A stretch of 64,000 nucleotides of DNA from Octopus vulgaris (Eukaryota): the NCBI GenBank assembly GCA_951406725.2, contig OX597815.1, positions 130,820,001 to 130,884,000 of the forward strand. Reading direction: 5' to 3'. The notes beneath the pieces are model-generated. The model searched no databases, was not told the origin of the DNA, and was given only the letters and a program-made list of their open reading frames with translations. The stretch's first letter is position 1; every line of letters begins with the position of its first letter. The translations under genes and the position numbers were made by a program. Of the stretch, positions 20,531 to 64,000 are shown piece by piece.

Positions 20531-22205
20531 GTAATTATTTGCTTTTTGTGTGTTCACCTTATTAATCTCAGTCACTAGCATTCTCTCCTCAACCCAATCT
20601 TTGTAATAGTACTGGCATCATACAATCTCTGTTGGTTTAGTGCAACTACAGAGAGTAACAAATAAAAAAATGAAGCTCAGCTAAATGTTGTATGTTCACA
20701 CATGTAAAATGTTATGATAAATAATGAGTATTCACAATAAATTGCATATGGGTAATTTCATCATTATCATCATCATCATTTAGTGTCTGCTTTCCATGCT
20801 GGCATGGATTGAATGATTGAACGATTTGACTCTGAGATCTGGTAAGCCAGGAGGCTGCACCAGGCTCTGATTTGATTTGGCATGGTTTCTACAGCTGGAT
20901 GCCCTTCCTAATGCCAACCACTCTGAGAGTGTAGTGGGTGCTTTTTATGTGCCACCAGCATGGGGGCGAGTCAGGTGGCATTGGCATTGACCATGCTCAA
21001 ATGGTGCTTTTTACATGCCACCAGCATGGGAGCCAGTCAGGCAATACTGGCATCAAACACGCCTGAATGGTGCTTTTTACATGCCACTAGCACTGGCATC
21101 AGCGTAATAAATAAATTGGCAGTCTGTAATTACAATGACAAGGGTTCCAGTCGATCCAATCAATGGAACAGCCTGCACATGAAATTAAAGCAAGTGGCTG
21201 AGCACACCACAGACATGGCCTTTTGAAATACAGGTACAACTCATTTTTGCAAGCTTAGTGGACTGGAGCAATGTGAAATAAAGTAACTTGCTCAAGGACA
21301 CGGTGTACCGCCAGGAATTGAACTCAACATCATTTAAAGTCCGTCTTTCATTCTAGCATAGGTGAGACAGTTTGACACGAGCCAGCCTGGTAGAAGCCTG
21401 CACCAGAGTTTTGTGACTGTTTTGGCAGGATTTTTACAGCTGGATCCCTTTCCTAGCACCAACCACTCAGCAGAGTGAACTTAGTGCTTTTTTACGTGGC
21501 ACAAGCACAGGTGAGGTCAGTTTGGGCAAGTTTTTACAGCTGGATGTCCTTCCAAATGTCAACCAATTTACAGTGTGTACTGGGTGCTTTTAAATGGCAC
21601 CTGCACCAACAGGGTCGCCAAGTATTTGCAAGACAAAAAACAAAATAACCTTCAAGAGGGGAGGGGGCATTGGAGGAGGTGATCTTGTATCAGATGATGA
21701 AAGGTTATAATGGGACAAAGAGACAGAAACTGGTGTCTTGTTGTTGCAGATAAAGTACAAGGTTACCCAGCTGGAGAGAAAGAGAGAGAGAGAGAGAAAG
21801 AAAGAGGGAGAGAGAGAGAGAGAGAGAAAGAGGGAGAGAGAGAGAGAGAGAGAAGAGAGGGAGAGAGAAAGAGGGAGAGAGAGAGAGAGAGAGAGAGAGG
21901 AATATATAACCAGAAGAAAGAATACTAGACATAACAATATATATACAAGAAGTGATTTCTTTATTGGTTCCTTTTGTCACTGTTCACTTTGTTTCTTTCA
22001 GGTAACAGGAAGACAAATGGATGGAGATGGGATGAGGTGGATTTAGTCAAAGGCTTTGGGAACTCATTGTGTTATTTCCTTTTCATTGGTCAATTTTGAT
22101 TAGACAATAATGTTTAGGATGCAGAATTGGGCATGTAGCCACATAAGCTAGCTCGTTCTTTATATTGCAGGGTCTCTCAATTTACTCGACACTTGTGCAC
22201 ATTAA

Positions 22206-55940: not shown

Positions 55941-58000
55941 GTTATTTACATTATTTACATTTGACGGATGTTTGTCCTTATCTTGTTTGTTGTTAACTAG
56001 GCCTCGAAACCGGTTTTCTATTATGATCAGTAAAACCGAAACGGATTTGCCAAAACGGTTTTAATGCTTGCTGTTTCTATTTTTTTTCGCAAAACATTTC
56101 TCCATTTTTTCTTTTGAAGAAATATCGTTGAAACTGAACTAACTGAACTGTTGTCGATTGCCTTTGGTTGAGAGTGCTGTCTGTTTCATTGAAACACATC
56201 GCAACATATCAATTCTCATCTTCTCTCCCCTTGAGCCTTAGATCAGCACCTTGTCATTTCCTTTGCTAACCCCTGACTGACTCTTTGAATTTGGAGGTAA
56301 CAGAGTTTATTCATAGCAAGTCAAGGGAATACTGTTAGTCTTCAGTCAGGTGATCTTTCCTGTTGAGCATATGTAATAACCAGTTCCAGATTCATTTCAA
56401 GGAAGTAACACTAACTAAATTTTTTTAAAATTATTTTCATTAGCCTAGCATGATAAAAAGAAAATCAACTGTTTGGAATTTTTTCGATTGGAAAAACAAA
56501 GATGAAGCTCAATGCAACAAGTGTGATAAGATCATGAAGCCTTCTGGAGGATCTATTACGTCTCTGATCTTGCACTTGAAGAAAATTCATCAAATTGACA
56601 TAAATCAAGATGCAAACCAGCCTCCTGTGGAAATGACAAGAACAATGGAACACTTTTTAACAAAGAAATCAATGGAAGAAGTTTCAAAGTTAGCTGCTAT
56701 GGATGGATTCTCTTTCAATTCAATTGCTAAAAGTGATTTTATACAGAGAAATCTTCATAGTCAGAGAAGCAAATATGATAAATTACAACCAACATCTGCA
56801 ATCAGAGTCAGGAATATAGTAATGAATATTCTATAGAATTTTTATTGAATAAACTTAATATCGTTGGCAACCCTTTGACTCTAAATCTTCATGAAAAACT
56901 TATGTATAGATATAATAAAAGAAGAAATGTCGAAACCTTGACTCTCTTGAGGTACTTACATAACCCAAGGAAGTTTAAAGGTGAATCAATTTCTGGACCT
57001 TTTCTTTTTTTAATGAAACAGCATTTGAGGAAGTATTCTGAACAAACATATAGGAGATTATTTCCTGAACATGACGCTGAGAACACAACAGAATTATACA
57101 AAGAAAATGAAATAGGAGGGAACCTAAAAACAAACATTACTGTTGTCTCATCTACTTACGAAGGTAATGAACCCATGCGTGAATACACAAGCGCAATGAA
57201 GAAAATGAATGAAGAGCCCAAGATAGTAACAGATGGATTTGAAATCTCTAAAGAATTCGAATATTTTGAAGCAACTTCGAACAGAAGTGAAAAGCTCGAG
57301 AAACTTTTATAGAGCATTGCTTACAACTAAGGCAACTAGTGTCCAGTCGGAAAGAGCTTTTTCAATTACTGGACTTTTCAACACAAAAATTAGGACAAGT
57401 TTGTCAGGTAAAACACTGAATGCATTGTGTCTTTTAAAAGATTATTTTCGAAGGAAAGTGAATCATCAAGAAAGTCAAAAAACTTGATTGATTCTCAAAA
57501 ATACAACTTGGGAAAACGTTGCATTCCTGATTAAATGAATATAATACCATTATTTTTTGTTATTGTTTGTACATAGATACAGATATAGGCACCATCAACA
57601 TATTTGTGGATATCAGTCAACCTGTTACTTTCTCTCTTTCTCTGTGTATGTATATAAACAAAATACAATATACGACAAATTTCTTCATCACAGGGACACC
57701 ACTCTAAATCTGTGAAAACCGGTTTTTAACCGGTTTTGAGAATTACTTATACTTAAACTCGGTTTTGAGAATTATCAGTTTTTGCAAGCCCTATTGTTAA
57801 CACAACATTTTGGCTGATATACCCTCCAGCCTCCATTAGGTGTCTTCGGGAAATTTCGAACTTGGGTTCTCGTTCCTAAGGTATTTGTTGATGTTATTAT
57901 TATTATTCAGGTCACTGGAATCGAACTCAGAATTTTGGGGTTAGTAGCCCACACTCTTAACCACTATGCCATATGCCCATGAGCATATGGTATAGTGGTT
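55941..58000 (-). mobile_element. Second copy of the hammerhead-bearing tRNA-SINE, split by the hAT insertion (55941-55997 plus 57794-58000)
   Basis: Both halves match 42004-42395; intact B box GAGTTCGATTCC; remnant GACAC-CTAATGG-A-GGCTG..CAGCC-AAAAT-GTT-GTGTT. Confidence 0.85.
55998..57793 (+). mobile_element. hAT transposon, internally deleted (BED finger and hATC dimerisation region retained)
   Basis: 8-bp TSD TTGTTAAC (55990-55997, 57794-57801); termini TAGGCCTCG / CAAGCCCTA; subterminal AAACCGGTTTT repeats. ORF 56450 has a BED finger (STVWNFF..AQCNKC..HLKKIH); ORF 57233 has ATSVQSERAFS..RTSLS..LNAL. Confidence 0.93.
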
Positions 58001-59809
58001 TTAGAATCAGTGCACTGCATCCTGGAATGTCAGGAACATTGATATTATAAAAGTTCAGATATAACAGTATGACAAGAAGTCATACATAATATCAAACTTG
58101 AACTTGGAAATTTAAGCTTTGCATTTTGTACGACACTAACAATTCTGCCAAAATAGGAAACATTCGACTACTTTTGTCACACCATTGTGCTTTTCAGTTG
58201 ATATTAGTTCTAAACACATTTACAAAGATATAGACTTATCATTTGGATTTAAGTGTTGAAAGTTGAATTTTTTTTCTAAGCTATAATCGCAAAAGCTATA
58301 CATGAATATTGAACATGTTATGGCTCACAATGAAGATTCTGACTTTTTTAACCTTTGAGAAAATGTTTCATAATTCCAATATTTTATATGTGTGGGTGAA
58401 TGGGCAGAGTAGTTAGAGTGTTGGATTGAATGCTTTGTTGTTTTCTCTCTAGTTCTCTGAGCCTTGAATTCAAATCCAACCAAGGTTGACTTTGCCTTTC
58501 ATCTTTTCAGGAGTTGATAAATCATTAACAATCCAGGGCAGTGGATTGACAGAACAGTAAGAACATTAGACTGGATGCCTTGTAGTATTTGTTCCAGCTC
58601 TTTGTATTCTGAATTTAAATCCCACCATGGTCAACGTGGGTGGTAAACTTAAAATATCACCTAGTTTAACAACAGTACCTGGTATCTTGTGAATCTTTAG
58701 CAGAGTCCACTCCATTGCATTCAGGACAGGTCACCTGTGAAATCTCTCAAGAGTACTACTGGTAATAGGGAATTCAGTACAACCTCTTGCATGGTCGAGT
58801 CATTAGGGACTAAGCCAGCACCCCCACTAACCTTACCTGGTGAGGAGGGTTGCTTGAAACCCAGCAGGACTAAAATGCACTTGTATACACTTATGTGCAG
58901 GTGTGGCTGTTTGGTTAAGAAGTTTGCTTCCTGATTACATGGTTTTGACCTCCGTCCCAGTGTGAGATACCTTGGGCAAGTGTCTTCTATGATAGTTCCA
59001 GGCCGGCAAAAGTAGATTTGGTAAAGAGAAATTGAAAGAAGCTTGTCATATATATAGATATATATGTGGCGTTAGGAAGAGCATCCAACTGTAGTAACTT
59101 TGCTTGATCAGATTGGAGCCTAGTAGCGCCTTCTGGTTTGCCAGTCCTCAGTCAAACCGTCCAACCCATGCCAGCATGGAAAGCAGACGTTAAACGATAA
59201 TGACAATGATGATCACATGCACACACACACACACACATACACACACTTACATACACACACACACACACACACACACGTGTGTGTATGTGTGTGTGTGTTT
59301 GTGTCACTTCTCTCACCGATGGCAAAAAAATATGATAGGACGAGTAGCCAACTTCAAAATAAGTACCGGGTTTGATTTGCTCGACAATACATTTCAAGGC
59401 AGTGCCCCAACATTGCCAGAGTCCAATGACTGAAATAATTAGAAGATAAAAGAAATCATATCACTTTAGATAGATCTTATAATATAAAGGATTTGTCCGT
59501 AGTTTACAACACTAAGAATATTTTAAGCTTTCTTCTACTTAGACATGGCTCATTAAAGTTTTGAATGTCTTTCTCGATTGCTTCATGCTAAAACAACATG
59601 TCTACATACTTCAGTATACATGTCTTGCTTTTTATTCTCTTCAATCTTATCATATTGTATTGGTGCTTCTTGTTGCCATTTGCTTTTATTAGATATGGGT
59701 GTGTCTGGATCTACTGAGACATTTTTCTTCCACCTGCAACTCCCCAAAAAAAAAAAAGAGATAAATCATTGATTTTGAAAGAAATCAATGCTTACTAGAT
59801 CTATTTACT

Positions 59810-60165
59810 TCTCTTCTTTGACATCCCGAAGACTAGGCCCCTGTGCAATGCGTCCCCTACAAAGGTCGAGATCAAATCACATAAGAAAAATTTTTTCACT
59901 GCAAATGGTCCTGCTGCTTTCAATGTTATTCTGAAAGAAATTAAAGTAGAAAAAGACCCCACAACTTTCAAATGGTACCTGGACAAATTCCTCCAGGAAA
60001 TACTGGATAAACCACCTACACCTGGATACATCTCAACCAACAACAACAACTCTCTGCTTGAGTGGTCCATGGTGTCCCGAAATGATTAACTAAAAGACTT
60101 TTCCAGGTGGTGCTATTGAGTTAGTCATGGCCTGGACCAATAATGGCTGAAACCAATCTCAGTTA
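59810..60165 (+). mobile_element. CR1/L2-group LINE 3' end
   Basis: Translates NFFTANGPAAFNVILKEIK..DPTTFKWYLDKFLQEILDKPPTPGY...NSLLEW, typical of the ORF2 C-terminus of this group. Confidence 0.6.
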
Positions 60166-61111
60166 TTTAAGTTACTAAAACTAGCTTTTATTATGTATCA
60201 TACATTGCATTGTGTCCTTAATTAAACCACTTTATTATTTAACCCTCTAGTTTTCAGATTACTCTATTAAATGCAATGCTTATTTAGTCACATTATTTTG
60301 AATTAATTATGCATTATCTCATAGCTTTGAGATTTCAATGATGTGATTGTTTATTTTTAGAATGACATTGTCGTATTAGTGTGGGAGACTGGATCTGGCC
60401 AGTTTAAATGGTTAATAACTCATGTATGTATCCACAGACATGAACAACATCACTTTCTCTCACTCTCTCCTCTCCCCCCTCTCTCTTGTTTCTCAATATT
60501 GAGCAAACAGAAAGGGCTTGACATATTAAATTCTTCACTCTTCAAGGCAATGGAACTTATCAAATCCTTTCATAAATTTTTCAATTTACAATGCAGTCTA
60601 TTTATCTTAAATGGATAGCATAAAAGAGATACAGTTATGGGCACACTGGGCAGGGGAAAAGGGCATAGTTCTAAGGGCCCATTCTAATCCATGTAGGCTA
60701 TGACTTGTGCCAATGAATAAAATGCATTAAATTTCCCAGCTGCCTATAATGCTGCTAAAATGGTCCTGGATGCAACCTCATGCTGTAGATAGCATGGGGA
60801 CCTGTGTATAAGGGATGATTAGTTCAATATGTAGTAGTCATTCATTGTTGTTGTTGTCATTGTTGTTTTAATGTCCATTTTTCCAAGCTTGCATGGGTCA
60901 GATATTTTTTTAATGACAGATTTTCTAAGGTTGGGTTCCTTTACTGCTGCCAACACTCACATATTTCTGAGAAAAGTAATATTTTCTTAAGGCCAGACAT
61001 GTTTTGGCAAAATACTTGAAATAAACAACAGGGACAATCATTTTACAACTATCACACAATGTCAAGATAAGCAGATACATATATACACTCACATTTACAC
61101 TTGTATACACA

Positions 61112-61154
<43 letters not shown>

Positions 61155-61269
61155 AGGGCATTATTACACATAAATGCTCACACTAGAGGGACAAAGTCAT
61201 TACTACCAAAAATTATACTAATCATACCAAATGCAGTTTTTCAAAGCAAGACATTTAAAAATGAATTAT

Positions 61270-61325
61270 GTTCTGTATCACCGTGATTTCACATACAACT
61301 TGCGTCTAATGATCGTCAGCAGAAC
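61270..61325 (-). ncRNA. Type I hammerhead ribozyme motif (left arm, mirror copy)
   Basis: Exact reverse complement of 61441-61496. Confidence 0.8.
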
Positions 61326-61440
61326 TGATTCTGAATACATCATAAATAAACTACCAACCTTACGTAGCGAAGACGAACAGACTGTCTGTTCGTCTTCGCT
61401 ACGTAAGGTTGGTAGTTTATTTATGATGTATTCAGAATCA

Positions 61441-61496
61441 GTTCTGCTGACGATCATTAGACGCAAGTTGTATGTGAAATCACGGTGATACAGAAC
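61441..61496 (+). ncRNA. Type I hammerhead ribozyme motif (right arm)
   Basis: Stem I GTTCTG/CAGAAC, core CTGACGA, imperfect stem II capped by GCAA, GAAA, stem III ATCAC/GTGAT, NUH = AUA; predicted cleavage after 61490. Confidence 0.8.
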
Positions 61497-61754
61497 ATAA
61501 TTCATTTTTAAATGTCTTGCTTTGAAAAACTGCATTTGGGTATGATTAGTATAATTTTTGGTAGTAATGACTTTGTCCCTCCTAGTGTGAGGCATTTATG
61601 TGTAATAATGCCCTCTATACAATATAGATATAATTAATTTGTTCAAAGGAAAAAAATTATTTTCGGATTCTTTTCTTTTATGAGGTTTTCACGCTAGCTA
61701 CCCGATAATTTCTTGTTAAGATCCCTTATTAAGAGATTATCCTTAATTGTTAAA

Positions 61755-61803
<49 letters not shown>

Positions 61804-61805
<2 letters not shown>

Positions 61806-63410
61806 CATCATCATCATCATCATTCGTTTAACGCCCACTTTCCATGCTAGCATGAGTTGGACGATTTGACTGAGGACTGGTGAACCAGATGGCTGCACTA
61901 GGTTCCAATCTGATCTGGCAAAGTTTCTACAGCTAGATGCCTTTCCTATTACCAACCACTCTGACAGTGTAGTAGGTACTTTTATGTGCCACTGGCACGA
62001 TGGCCAGTCAGGCAGTACTAGCAATGGCTATGCTCAAATGATGTTTTTTATGTACCACCTGCACAAGAGCCAATCCAGCGGCACTGGCAACGACCTCGCT
62101 TAAATGCTTTTTCATGTGCCACCAGCACAAGTGCCAGTAAGGTGATGCTGGTAAAGATCACGCTTGAATGATGCTTTTTACATGTCACCAGCACAGAAGC
62201 GAGTTAGCTGCTCTGGCAATGATCAAGCGTGGATGGTGCTCTTAGCACTCCACTAGCATGGACGCCAGTCATTGAATTTGATTTCAATTTTGATTCTGAT
62301 TTCACTTGCCTCAACAGGTTTTCACAAGCAGAGTTAAGTGTCCAATGAAGGAAAGGTATGCATAAGTGGACTGGTTACACCCCTGGCATAGGCCACGTGG
62401 TTATGGTCTCACTTGGCTTGCCGGGTCTTCTCAAGCACAGCATATTTCCAACGATCTCAGTCACTAGTCATTGCCTTGGTGAGGCCCAACGTTCGAAGGT
62501 CATGGCGCACCACCTCATCCTAAGTCTTTCTGGGTCTACCTCTTCCACAGGTTCCCTCAACCACTAGGGTTTGGCACTTTTCATACGGCTATCCTCATCT
62601 ATTCTTGTCACATGACCATACCAGCACAATCGTCTCTCTTGCACACCACATCTGATGCTTCTTAGGTCCAACTTTTCCCTCAAGGTACTTACACTCTGTC
62701 GAGTATGTACACTGACATTACACATCCATTGGAGCATACTGGCTTCATTCCTTGCGAGCTTACACATGTCCTCAGCAGTCACGACCCATGTTTCACTGCC
62801 ATGTAGCATGGCTGTTTGTACCCATGTGTCATACAATCTACCTTTTACTCTGAATGAGAGGCCCTTTGTCACCAGCATAGGTAAGAGCTCTCTGAACTTT
62901 GCCCAGGCTACTCTTATTCTAGCAGCTACACTTTCAGCGTACCCTCCCCTGCTACTGACTTGGTCACCTAGGTAACGGAAGCTATCAACTACTTCTAGTT
63001 TTTCTCCTTGGAATGTGGCAGAAGTTGTTCTCTGCACATTTCAGTGTTTATTGCTGCTGAGCATCTGCCACATGCAAAAACTATCTTCCCAGCTAGCCTT
63101 CCTTTAATATTGCTTCACCTCTCATGTGTCCATAGCATACACTGAGTACATCTTATAGAGTTTCTACCTACGCCTTTTCTACAGATCAAGCAGGGTCATC
63201 TACCTGAAAGGATTTGTGGTTTGCCTGCCTTCCTACTTAGTTGGACTTTGGTTTTAGCTAGGCTGACTCTAAGGCCCTTTGATTCTAATCCTTGTTTCCA
63301 CACTTGAAACTTCTCTTCTAGTTCTGATAGTGACTCAGCAACTAGAGCAAGGTCGTCAGCATAGAGGAGCTCCCAGGGGCATCCTGTCTTGCATTCCTCT
63401 GTTATTGCCT
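61804..63410 (-). mobile_element. RTE-clade LINE, 5'-truncated (same family as 30198-32497)
   Basis: GCPWELLYADDL, FRYLGD, LHGSETW; 3' UTR with 66-bp units and (GAT)n tail at 61804-61822. Confidence 0.95.
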
Positions 63411-63424
63411 GTCCTATATATATA

Positions 63425-63612
63425 GATAGATTAGTAGTCACTACACACATTCTTTTCTCTCCTTGTTTTTTTCTGAGTCCCTTTCTTTAGAAGAGCGTAG
63501 GCTCGAAACGTATAAAAGACTTTTCTATTTCTGAACATTATACAAATACATCTGTTTGTTTTGTACACCACCTGTCTTCGTCTTTTGTTTTTTTCGTGAA
63601 ATCTCCCTACAT
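63425..63612 (+). mobile_element. Short microsatellite-flanked element with a partial hammerhead (Penelope pLTR-like)
   Basis: Contains GAGC-GTAG-GCTC-GAAAC-GTA (63493-63512); ends CTCCCTAC into (TG)n and starts after (TA)n. Confidence 0.5.
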
Positions 63613-63750
63613 GTGTGTGTGTGTGTGTATGAATTTAAATAATAAAGATAAAAATTGATATTAATTAAATTAATATCAATTTAAACCAGTGGCCTGGCAT
63701 ATTGAAAAATATCTGAAGATTCAGAACGTTATATTACATATATATAAGGG

Positions 63751-63940
63751 GAATGACCACTAGGTGGATTCCTTAAATGCTAAAAGTAGCCACCATATGG
63801 TATGTGACTAATCACTATATTTTGTATCTTTTCATTTGTCTTGCTCACTTTTTGTTCTGGTGTTTACTGAAATTTCTTGAGAACAATTTTTCTTAGTGGT
63901 CAGACCTTTAGCATATTAGGAATCCACCTAGTGGTCATTC
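63751..63940. mobile_element. Inverted-repeat element embedded in (TA)n
   Basis: Perfect 23-bp IR GAATGACCACTAGGTGGATTCCT (63751-63773) / AGGAATCCACCTAGTGGTCATTC (63918-63940), extended by TGCTAAA/TTTAGCA. Confidence 0.75.
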
Positions 63941-64000
63941 TTATATGTATGTATACATATATATATATATATATGTGTGTGTATGTGTGTGTATGCGTGT

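Follow-up and report, generated by a model that had tools for sequence, protein, structure and literature searches.

The window, that is, the whole stretch of 64,000 nucleotides of Octopus vulgaris DNA analysed here, carries at 61152-61759 a palindromic insertion with (TA)n on both sides. Its core consists of perfect inverted arms of 156 nt (61227-61382 and 61384-61539) around a 1-nt centre, and the mirror symmetry reaches about 61152 and about 61620 once four small gaps are allowed. To this extent the fold-back of about 470 bp that an earlier sequence-only reading had described is there. That reading also let the element end at 61620 and took an arm of about 235 nt as its unit, and here it has to be corrected. 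The right arm continues for another 140 nt to 61759 and only then meets (TA)n, which leaves the two ends unequal. The true unit is a tandem repeat of 479 nt, and a 127-nt tail makes the ends asymmetric.

In the coordinates of that unit (u1 to u479), the left half of the insertion is a short arm of 231 nt on the minus strand (61152-61382), which runs from u1 to about u237-248 and has four small deletions in its outer 80 nt. The right half is a long arm of 376 nt on the plus strand (61384-61759; u1-u375), 99% identical to an array unit over 376 nt. The arms meet head to head, without microhomology, at one base (61383) that is also u479, the last base of the unit. Both point with their 3' ends outward into (TA)n; the tracts at 61117-61155 and 61757-61805 are the left and right halves of the target microsatellite. 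The TA-rich site at which the short arm ends (u237-248, to about u248) is read through in the long arm at 61620-61632 (plus strand). It is followed by the tail (61633-61759), which occupies the interval between the two end sites and is present on the long arm only. Within the tail, 18 nt before the long end at 61759, there is a conserved motif with a hairpin (61686-61741, the hairpin itself at 61704-61741), a candidate protein-binding element. All 19 inspected arm ends of the family meet a TA-type repeat. The window insertion is the cleanest case in the family, with arms that differ by the tail alone and a blunt 1-nt centre. As a locus it is ordinary within its family.

The surroundings are transposon relics, and no host gene is evident in 56000-64000. 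A broken relic of a hAT-like transposase lies at 56444-57487; by eye it has a BED-finger-like start and a dimerisation-like end. An inverted pair of a dispersed repeat (59073-59197 and 61824-61948) is 84% identical. A 66-bp tandem unit occupies 61979-62210, with similar arrays at 20937, 22785, 26810, 32115 and 34414. The dispersed repeat and the 66-bp unit probably belong to a SINE-like family.

Each arm also carries the type I hammerhead motif that the first reading had proposed. A motif scan of all 64 kb returned two hammerheads only, at 61447 on the plus strand and at 61319 on the minus strand. The right copy (61433-61504, plus) is made up of a distal stem I, stem I, the core at 61447-61453, stem II with a U.U pair at its base and a palindromic stem III; its predicted cut falls after 61490 (u107). 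The left copy (61262-61333, minus), placed by the scan and as the mirror of the right one, has its predicted cut between 61276 and 61275. The type I core CUGANGA / GAAA / NUH, the three stems and an open stem I are all present. Across copies of the family, core position 7 varies freely (all four bases occur), and the base at the cut is A or C. Self-cleavage is a prediction from the motif.

How good is the ribozyme call? The proposed search with Rfam hammerhead models was negative: among 51 matches in 58000-64000 none is to a hammerhead family at E<=10, so the call rests on motif and covariation. The isolated motif folds no better than shuffled sequences (z 0.25), and the predicted hammerhead fold, at -10.5 kcal/mol, lies 1.2 above the minimum of -11.7, with stem III weakly populated. 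Such weakness is common for the palindromic stem III of animal type I motifs, which can work as dimers (PMC4209133). Genomic copies with covarying stems, which the earlier reading had asked for, do exist. In a set of 15 variants picked from 62 distinct hammerhead sequences, 8 of 18 pairs have changed on both sides and 92.6% of cells are paired, against 24-42% in slid controls; the changes trace to a few subfamily splits, and the row of the 482-nt relative is misaligned. Pair 10.1-11.1 at the base of stem II departs from the Watson-Crick rule. It is U.U in the young family, G-C in an older one and A.C or A-U in intermediates. The mismatch, previously entered as a caveat, is therefore real, but since young-family hammerheads carry it generally, it is a trait of the family and not decay of the window copy. 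The hammerhead of a resident Penelope-like element (PLE), the 775-codon family discussed below, likewise has U.U.

A search of the genome (2.8 Gb) with one arm gave 1674 first-look candidates, and the 40 that were scored gave full-length matches of 97-100%. The 479-nt unit exists in hundreds of near-identical copies. Single, tandem and inverted copies, which the sequence-only reading had proposed to look for, are all among them, and many stand in arrays of 479-nt period with up to 12 units. The unit is low in GC and codes for no protein (its longest ATG-opened frame has 79 codons), and its copies are dispersed, with ends on many contigs. A frame for reverse transcriptase (RT) plus GIY-YIG, as an autonomous PLE would have, is absent from the 479-nt unit. 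Tandem units with one type I hammerhead each are what defines a non-LTR retrozyme at the level of sequence, and this is what we find. There are two relatives, an older one of about 476 nt (3083 candidates) and a third family of 482 nt (983 candidates); both form arrays and inverted pairs too, and the tail motif and the hairpin are kept in all three. The 482-nt family, seen at L257:847-1330, is young and has U at core position 3 and a mismatch at 10.1-11.1; it too shows an inverted insertion, with the same tail motif and hairpin as in the 479-nt family.

Public sequencing runs also contain the unit. Among 24 runs listed, 18 hold half of its words or more. Contigs of four runs were examined. Three of these runs, whose RNA nature is a guess, contain the unit at low depth together with its head-to-tail joint, which arises from arrays as well as from circles.

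Some other elements were seen next to copies of the family. A 5.3-kb L1/Tx1-like LINE (L109:1957-7242; L097:1-1278; L028 junction) with open frames of 495 and 1133 codons (APE endonuclease and RT) interrupts a retrozyme unit at u15-20 and is accompanied by a short target duplication. Another copy of it, on a different contig, abuts the identical retrozyme base. We considered a LINE dedicated to this target and rejected it, as only 2 of 555 exact LINE 3' ends lie in the retrozyme (the two patterns differ); the position at u15-20 is a sequence preference and not a dedicated target. Several LINE 3' ends lie in 1.67-kb tandem arrays. Near another retrozyme copy there is an intron-free open frame of 265 codons that looks caspase-like by eye (L118:900-1697).

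The ends of the copies are more informative. Genome-wide, exact junctions with (TA)n number 129 at the long end, u375, and 177 at the short end, about u248, while reversed control junctions number 0 for both types. The two end sites are thus fixed and 127 nt apart. How they combine was counted at 80 loci, 40 long-end and 40 short-end, drawn from the first 100 junctions of each type. Long-end loci were taken in listed order, the short-end set leaves out loci with an exact long-end match nearby, and loci examined earlier were left out of both. Head-to-head two-armed insertions account for 51 of the 80. Of these, 49 pair a short with a long end, two have one end off site (u223, u354), and none pairs like with like. 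Another 28 loci are single-armed (13 long, 15 short), and at the remaining one a short and long pair is split by a LINE. Since 15 of the 40 short-end loci are without a second arm, the short site can stand alone.

This pairing rule bears on two other origins of the palindrome. One is an inversion at the DNA level, independent of reverse transcription, that followed the insertion through a replication template switch or through break repair in a satellite-like array. The unit does form tandem arrays and sits in unstable TA tracts, and local amplification at the DNA level is allowed for in the preprint of Li, Clavereau and Pollet (bioRxiv, 10.64898/2026.07.22.740005). Yet a duplication would copy one end and give like-with-like or random pairs, whereas 0 of 51 are like-with-like and 49 lie at the fixed sites; nor are the flanks duplicated. 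Such an inversion seems very unlikely to us.

The other is an artefact, a fold-back read chimera or a mis-assembly at the window locus itself. Here the suspicion comes from the four deletions of the left arm. They are of homopolymer type, and among copies at loci L101-L180 three of them occur in 0 of 57, 0 of 117 and 0 of 138, the fourth in 3 of 35; moreover, the window locus is known from the assembly. Because three deletions are absent from other copies, the outer left arm probably contains consensus errors or private mutations. A chimera, however, would hardly end its arms at the two different sites of the family and between flanks that differ. The 51 other inverted insertions share the plan and both end sites and differ in their centres, and the joint of the short end with (TA)n is present in contigs of independent runs (three of the four examined). 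This largely removes the worry about a chimera, which the first reading had kept open and to which we would now give very little weight.

The insertion in the window has an inverted 5'-truncated copy, a tail at one side and a microsatellite target, the marks of mobilisation by a PLE. An inverted 5'-truncated copy together with a tail at one end is the published signature of PLE insertions (PMC8557442, PMC3846280), and for this reason we regard the palindrome as a by-product of insertion. It represents a single insertion of a hammerhead tandem repeat of 479 nt that is young and codes for no protein, and not a ribozyme pair. The element itself is very probably a retrozyme-type repeat mobilised by a PLE. 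The earlier proposal, that of a young hammerhead retroelement linked to Penelope which codes for no protein, is associated with microsatellites and takes the form of an inverted pair, is supported in this respect by the copies, their ends, the TA targets and the PLE-type anatomy.

The same proposal had treated the two back-to-back ribozymes as something special. One can imagine a selected functional unit in which dsRNA, as a substrate for ADAR or siRNA, acts as a switch against self-cleavage. A transcript of the locus would indeed fold into a hairpin of great length (273 pairs; predicted -418 kcal/mol). But the centres of the inverted insertions are scattered, many of these insertions have one ribozyme or none, the locus stands among transposon relics with no evident host gene nearby, and transcription of the window locus is without support. 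We hold selection for such a unit to be extremely improbable; the palindrome is a routine insertion product of the family.

The inner ends, at which the two arms meet, allow the process to be narrowed further. In 17 of the 49 short and long insertions they coincide on the template to within 10 nt, where 2.4 would be expected and 100000 permutations never gave more than 11, and in 30 the distance between them exceeds 15 nt. In the other 19, with inner ends 15 nt apart or less, the short arm extends further 5' in 8 cases and less far in 7, and in 4 the two arms are level. Seven of those 8 further-reaching short arms are without tail sequence, so neither arm is a plain fold-back copy of the other. 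Later asymmetric deletion at palindrome centres could mimic further-reaching short arms. The arms of one insertion differ by 0.8% (34/4400) as against 3.0% to other loci, a comparison made at 30 loci with enough overlap in which two older-family loci raise the 3.0% figure. Gene conversion from arm to arm could be a source of this high identity.

The centres are of several kinds. They are blunt, of 1-2 nt, in the window and at L102, L106 and L136; loop-free on self-complementary words at L117, L140 and L155; and hairpin-like at L115, L127 and L144. Further centres carry short inserts. At some junctions (L003:2001-2241 and L021:2698-2928) the arms are separated by 50-240 nt of sequence that is unrelated or scrambled, which suggests that the template was changed while they were being joined. 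As for the ribozyme, 62 of 130 arms read through its cut site, and this site shows no excess of inner ends (4 of 130, as against 4, 4 and 10 in the neighbouring bins), for which reason we rejected cleaved monomers as the usual template.

The reading that we favour, though with only fair confidence, is twin priming. Each side of a TA break would start a separate cDNA on one and the same RNA, each using one of the two sites 127 nt apart, with the RT-endonuclease of a PLE acting in trans. The PLE enzyme, probably as a dimer, would cut both strands of (TA)n. One 3'-OH would start at u375 and the other at about u248, where the RNA itself is UA-rich, on a template that may be an uncleaved multimer or a circle. 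Both cDNAs would often stop at the same point, an RNA end or a break, and would be joined head to head, either bluntly, by pairing of a few complementary bases or across a short insert. Each of the joined cDNAs could then prime the second strand of the other. The hammerhead likely processes array transcripts to monomers and circles and would be dispensable at insertion. What is observed under this scheme is the unit, the family of copies, the fixed ends, the TA targets, the pairing of short with long, the coincident inner ends and the like anatomy in autonomous PLEs of this genome. A purified PLE protein behaves in a suitable way (Frangieh 2024, PMC11167929). It cuts and extends both strands at AT-rich DNA, it starts at two internal RNA sites, which bound the genomic tail, it is predicted to dimerise, and ribozyme cleavage is not needed. 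Counting against twin priming are the 30 of 49 insertions without coincident inner ends, the three centres that resemble short hairpin fold-backs (L115, L127, L144), and the length of the tail, since 127 nt far exceeds both the published 30-40 nt and the roughly 30-50 nt of the PLEs resident in this genome.

The same element and the same PLE enzyme could also produce the palindrome from a single priming event. A long cDNA would fold back and copy itself, and the short end would be set at resolution, by the endonuclease or by pairing of the TA site with the target. This directly accounts for the coincident inner ends, for the identity of the arms and for the hairpin-like centres. Self-priming is the published reading of PLE palindromes (Arkhipova 2013, PMC3846280), tail resolution mediated by the endonuclease (EN) has been published as well (Craig 2021, PMC8557442), and the short site is TA-rich. 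But in seven near-coincident insertions it is the tail-less short arm that goes further 5' than the long arm, and loop-free centres (L117, L140, L155) and blunt 1-nt centres (the window, L102, L136) cannot be hairpin loops. Non-matching inner ends in 30 of 49 insertions, the 15 of 40 short ends that stand alone and the extension of both strands by PLE protein in vitro (PMC11167929) speak against it too. We consider a fold-back unlikely, though well short of negligible.

Twin priming might be taken one step further. If an RT-endonuclease dimer binds a single retrozyme RNA, which may be a circle, at two fixed sites held by the conserved structured tail and copies it from both ends of the break at once, then inversion, tail and second strand would be parts of one concerted reaction, and the retrozyme would have evolved a recognition element of its own, with no detectable likeness to resident PLEs. 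This is a tentative suggestion and leans somewhat to the doubtful side. The short site being TA-rich, its position may also be set by base pairing alone.

Which enzyme could it be? At least four young PLE families are present in the genome. Their intact frames measure 781, 775, 753 and 784 codons, and RT and GIY-YIG domains were confirmed for the 781-codon family. All five two-armed PLE insertions with both ends in view (L043, L223, L244, L246, L256) pair short with long, and all five lie in (TA)n. We found no meaningful DNA similarity between the 479-nt unit and the examined loci of these four families, a comparison that takes in upstream sequence in the 781-codon family only. In the 775-codon family the distance from cut to short end is about 138 nt, as against 131-141 nt in the retrozyme, and its hammerhead shares U.U, which is suggestive; as a partner this family is a lead only. 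Two other candidates were rejected. A 75% match near a GIY-YIG fragment (L063) is an inverted copy of older date, and the piece of PLE next to it is unrelated, and a motif match at L220 is a nested piece of the 482-nt family.

Some further features of the resident families were noted. They are Neptune-like, with many intact frames (L051-L062, L211-L225, L241-L256). The 781-codon family has an upstream frame of 479 codons without a Pfam match. By eye, the 781-, 784- and 753-codon elements have candidate minimal hammerhead-like motifs with a U3-A8 core variant, 70-100 nt before their short ends.

We know other elements with which this family can be compared. Metazoan non-LTR retrozymes (Cervera and de la Pena 2020, PMC7229834; preprint 10.64898/2026.07.22.740005) are, like the octopus family, non-coding low-GC tandem units with one type I hammerhead each, dispersed as monomers to multimers and proposed to depend on PLEs, the dependence of animal retrozymes being proposed in the preprint. 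The units described for them measure 220-390 nt, as compared with 479 nt here. Inverted arms with a tail are the rule in the octopus family, while a word search of the available text of the two papers returned none described for retrozymes. Cleavage and circles have been demonstrated for the metazoan elements, whereas the octopus family is known here from sequence. The plant LTR retrozyme is a different matter. It has type III hammerheads in its LTRs and a 4-bp target duplication, in contrast to the type I motif, the tandem plan and the microsatellite ends seen here.

Twin priming as such is familiar from L1, in which the second nicked strand primes on the same RNA and a head-to-head inversion results. 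The twin-primed L1 cDNAs copy adjacent, non-overlapping parts of the RNA from a variable internal site. Unlike these, the octopus cDNA copies overlap and start at two fixed sites.

The closest likeness is to insertions of PLEs themselves (PMC3846280, PMC8557442, PMC11167929). They share the head-to-head 5'-truncated inverted copy, the tail at one end, palindromes at the inverted junction, (TA)n or AT-rich targets, two internal start sites and a hammerhead upstream of the ends. The octopus unit differs from them in having no open reading frame, in a 127-nt tail with a conserved hairpin instead of 30-40 nt, and in showing no sequence similarity to the resident PLEs examined. Non-autonomous Chlamys elements, e.g. 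MRC1, are likewise dependants of PLEs and form multicopy head-to-tail insertions (PMC8557442). These resemble their autonomous partner at the 3' end, whereas no partner similarity was found for the octopus unit, and the clade to which they belong is reported to be without canonical hammerheads, while the octopus unit keeps one.

Pairs of hammerheads on opposite strands, 100-700 bp apart, have been noted before (PMC4209133). Our literature search, which drew mostly on papers outside subscription and on their available text, returned none that describes this retrozyme anatomy, gives counts for the pairing rule or puts forward twin priming as a PLE mechanism. What is novel here is a non-LTR retrozyme that depends on PLEs, has a long structured tail and forms palindromes as by-products of insertion. 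The retrozyme is tied to the PLE machinery via the anatomy of its insertions and not via phylogeny. This touches on questions that were raised before. PMC8557442 names the origin of tandem and inverted PLE insertions and of their one-sided tails as an open question, PMC11167929 leaves it without validation, and the mechanism by which animal retrozymes are mobilised is left open in preprint 10.64898/2026.07.22.740005. A short, young, high-copy and protein-free family yields counts that autonomous elements rarely give, namely strict pairing and coincident inner ends. For an in vitro test it also provides an RNA of 479 nt with two predicted start sites and, from the same genome, four candidate enzymes. 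If the concerted reaction proves correct, the family would be a natural read-out of an unreported PLE mechanism.
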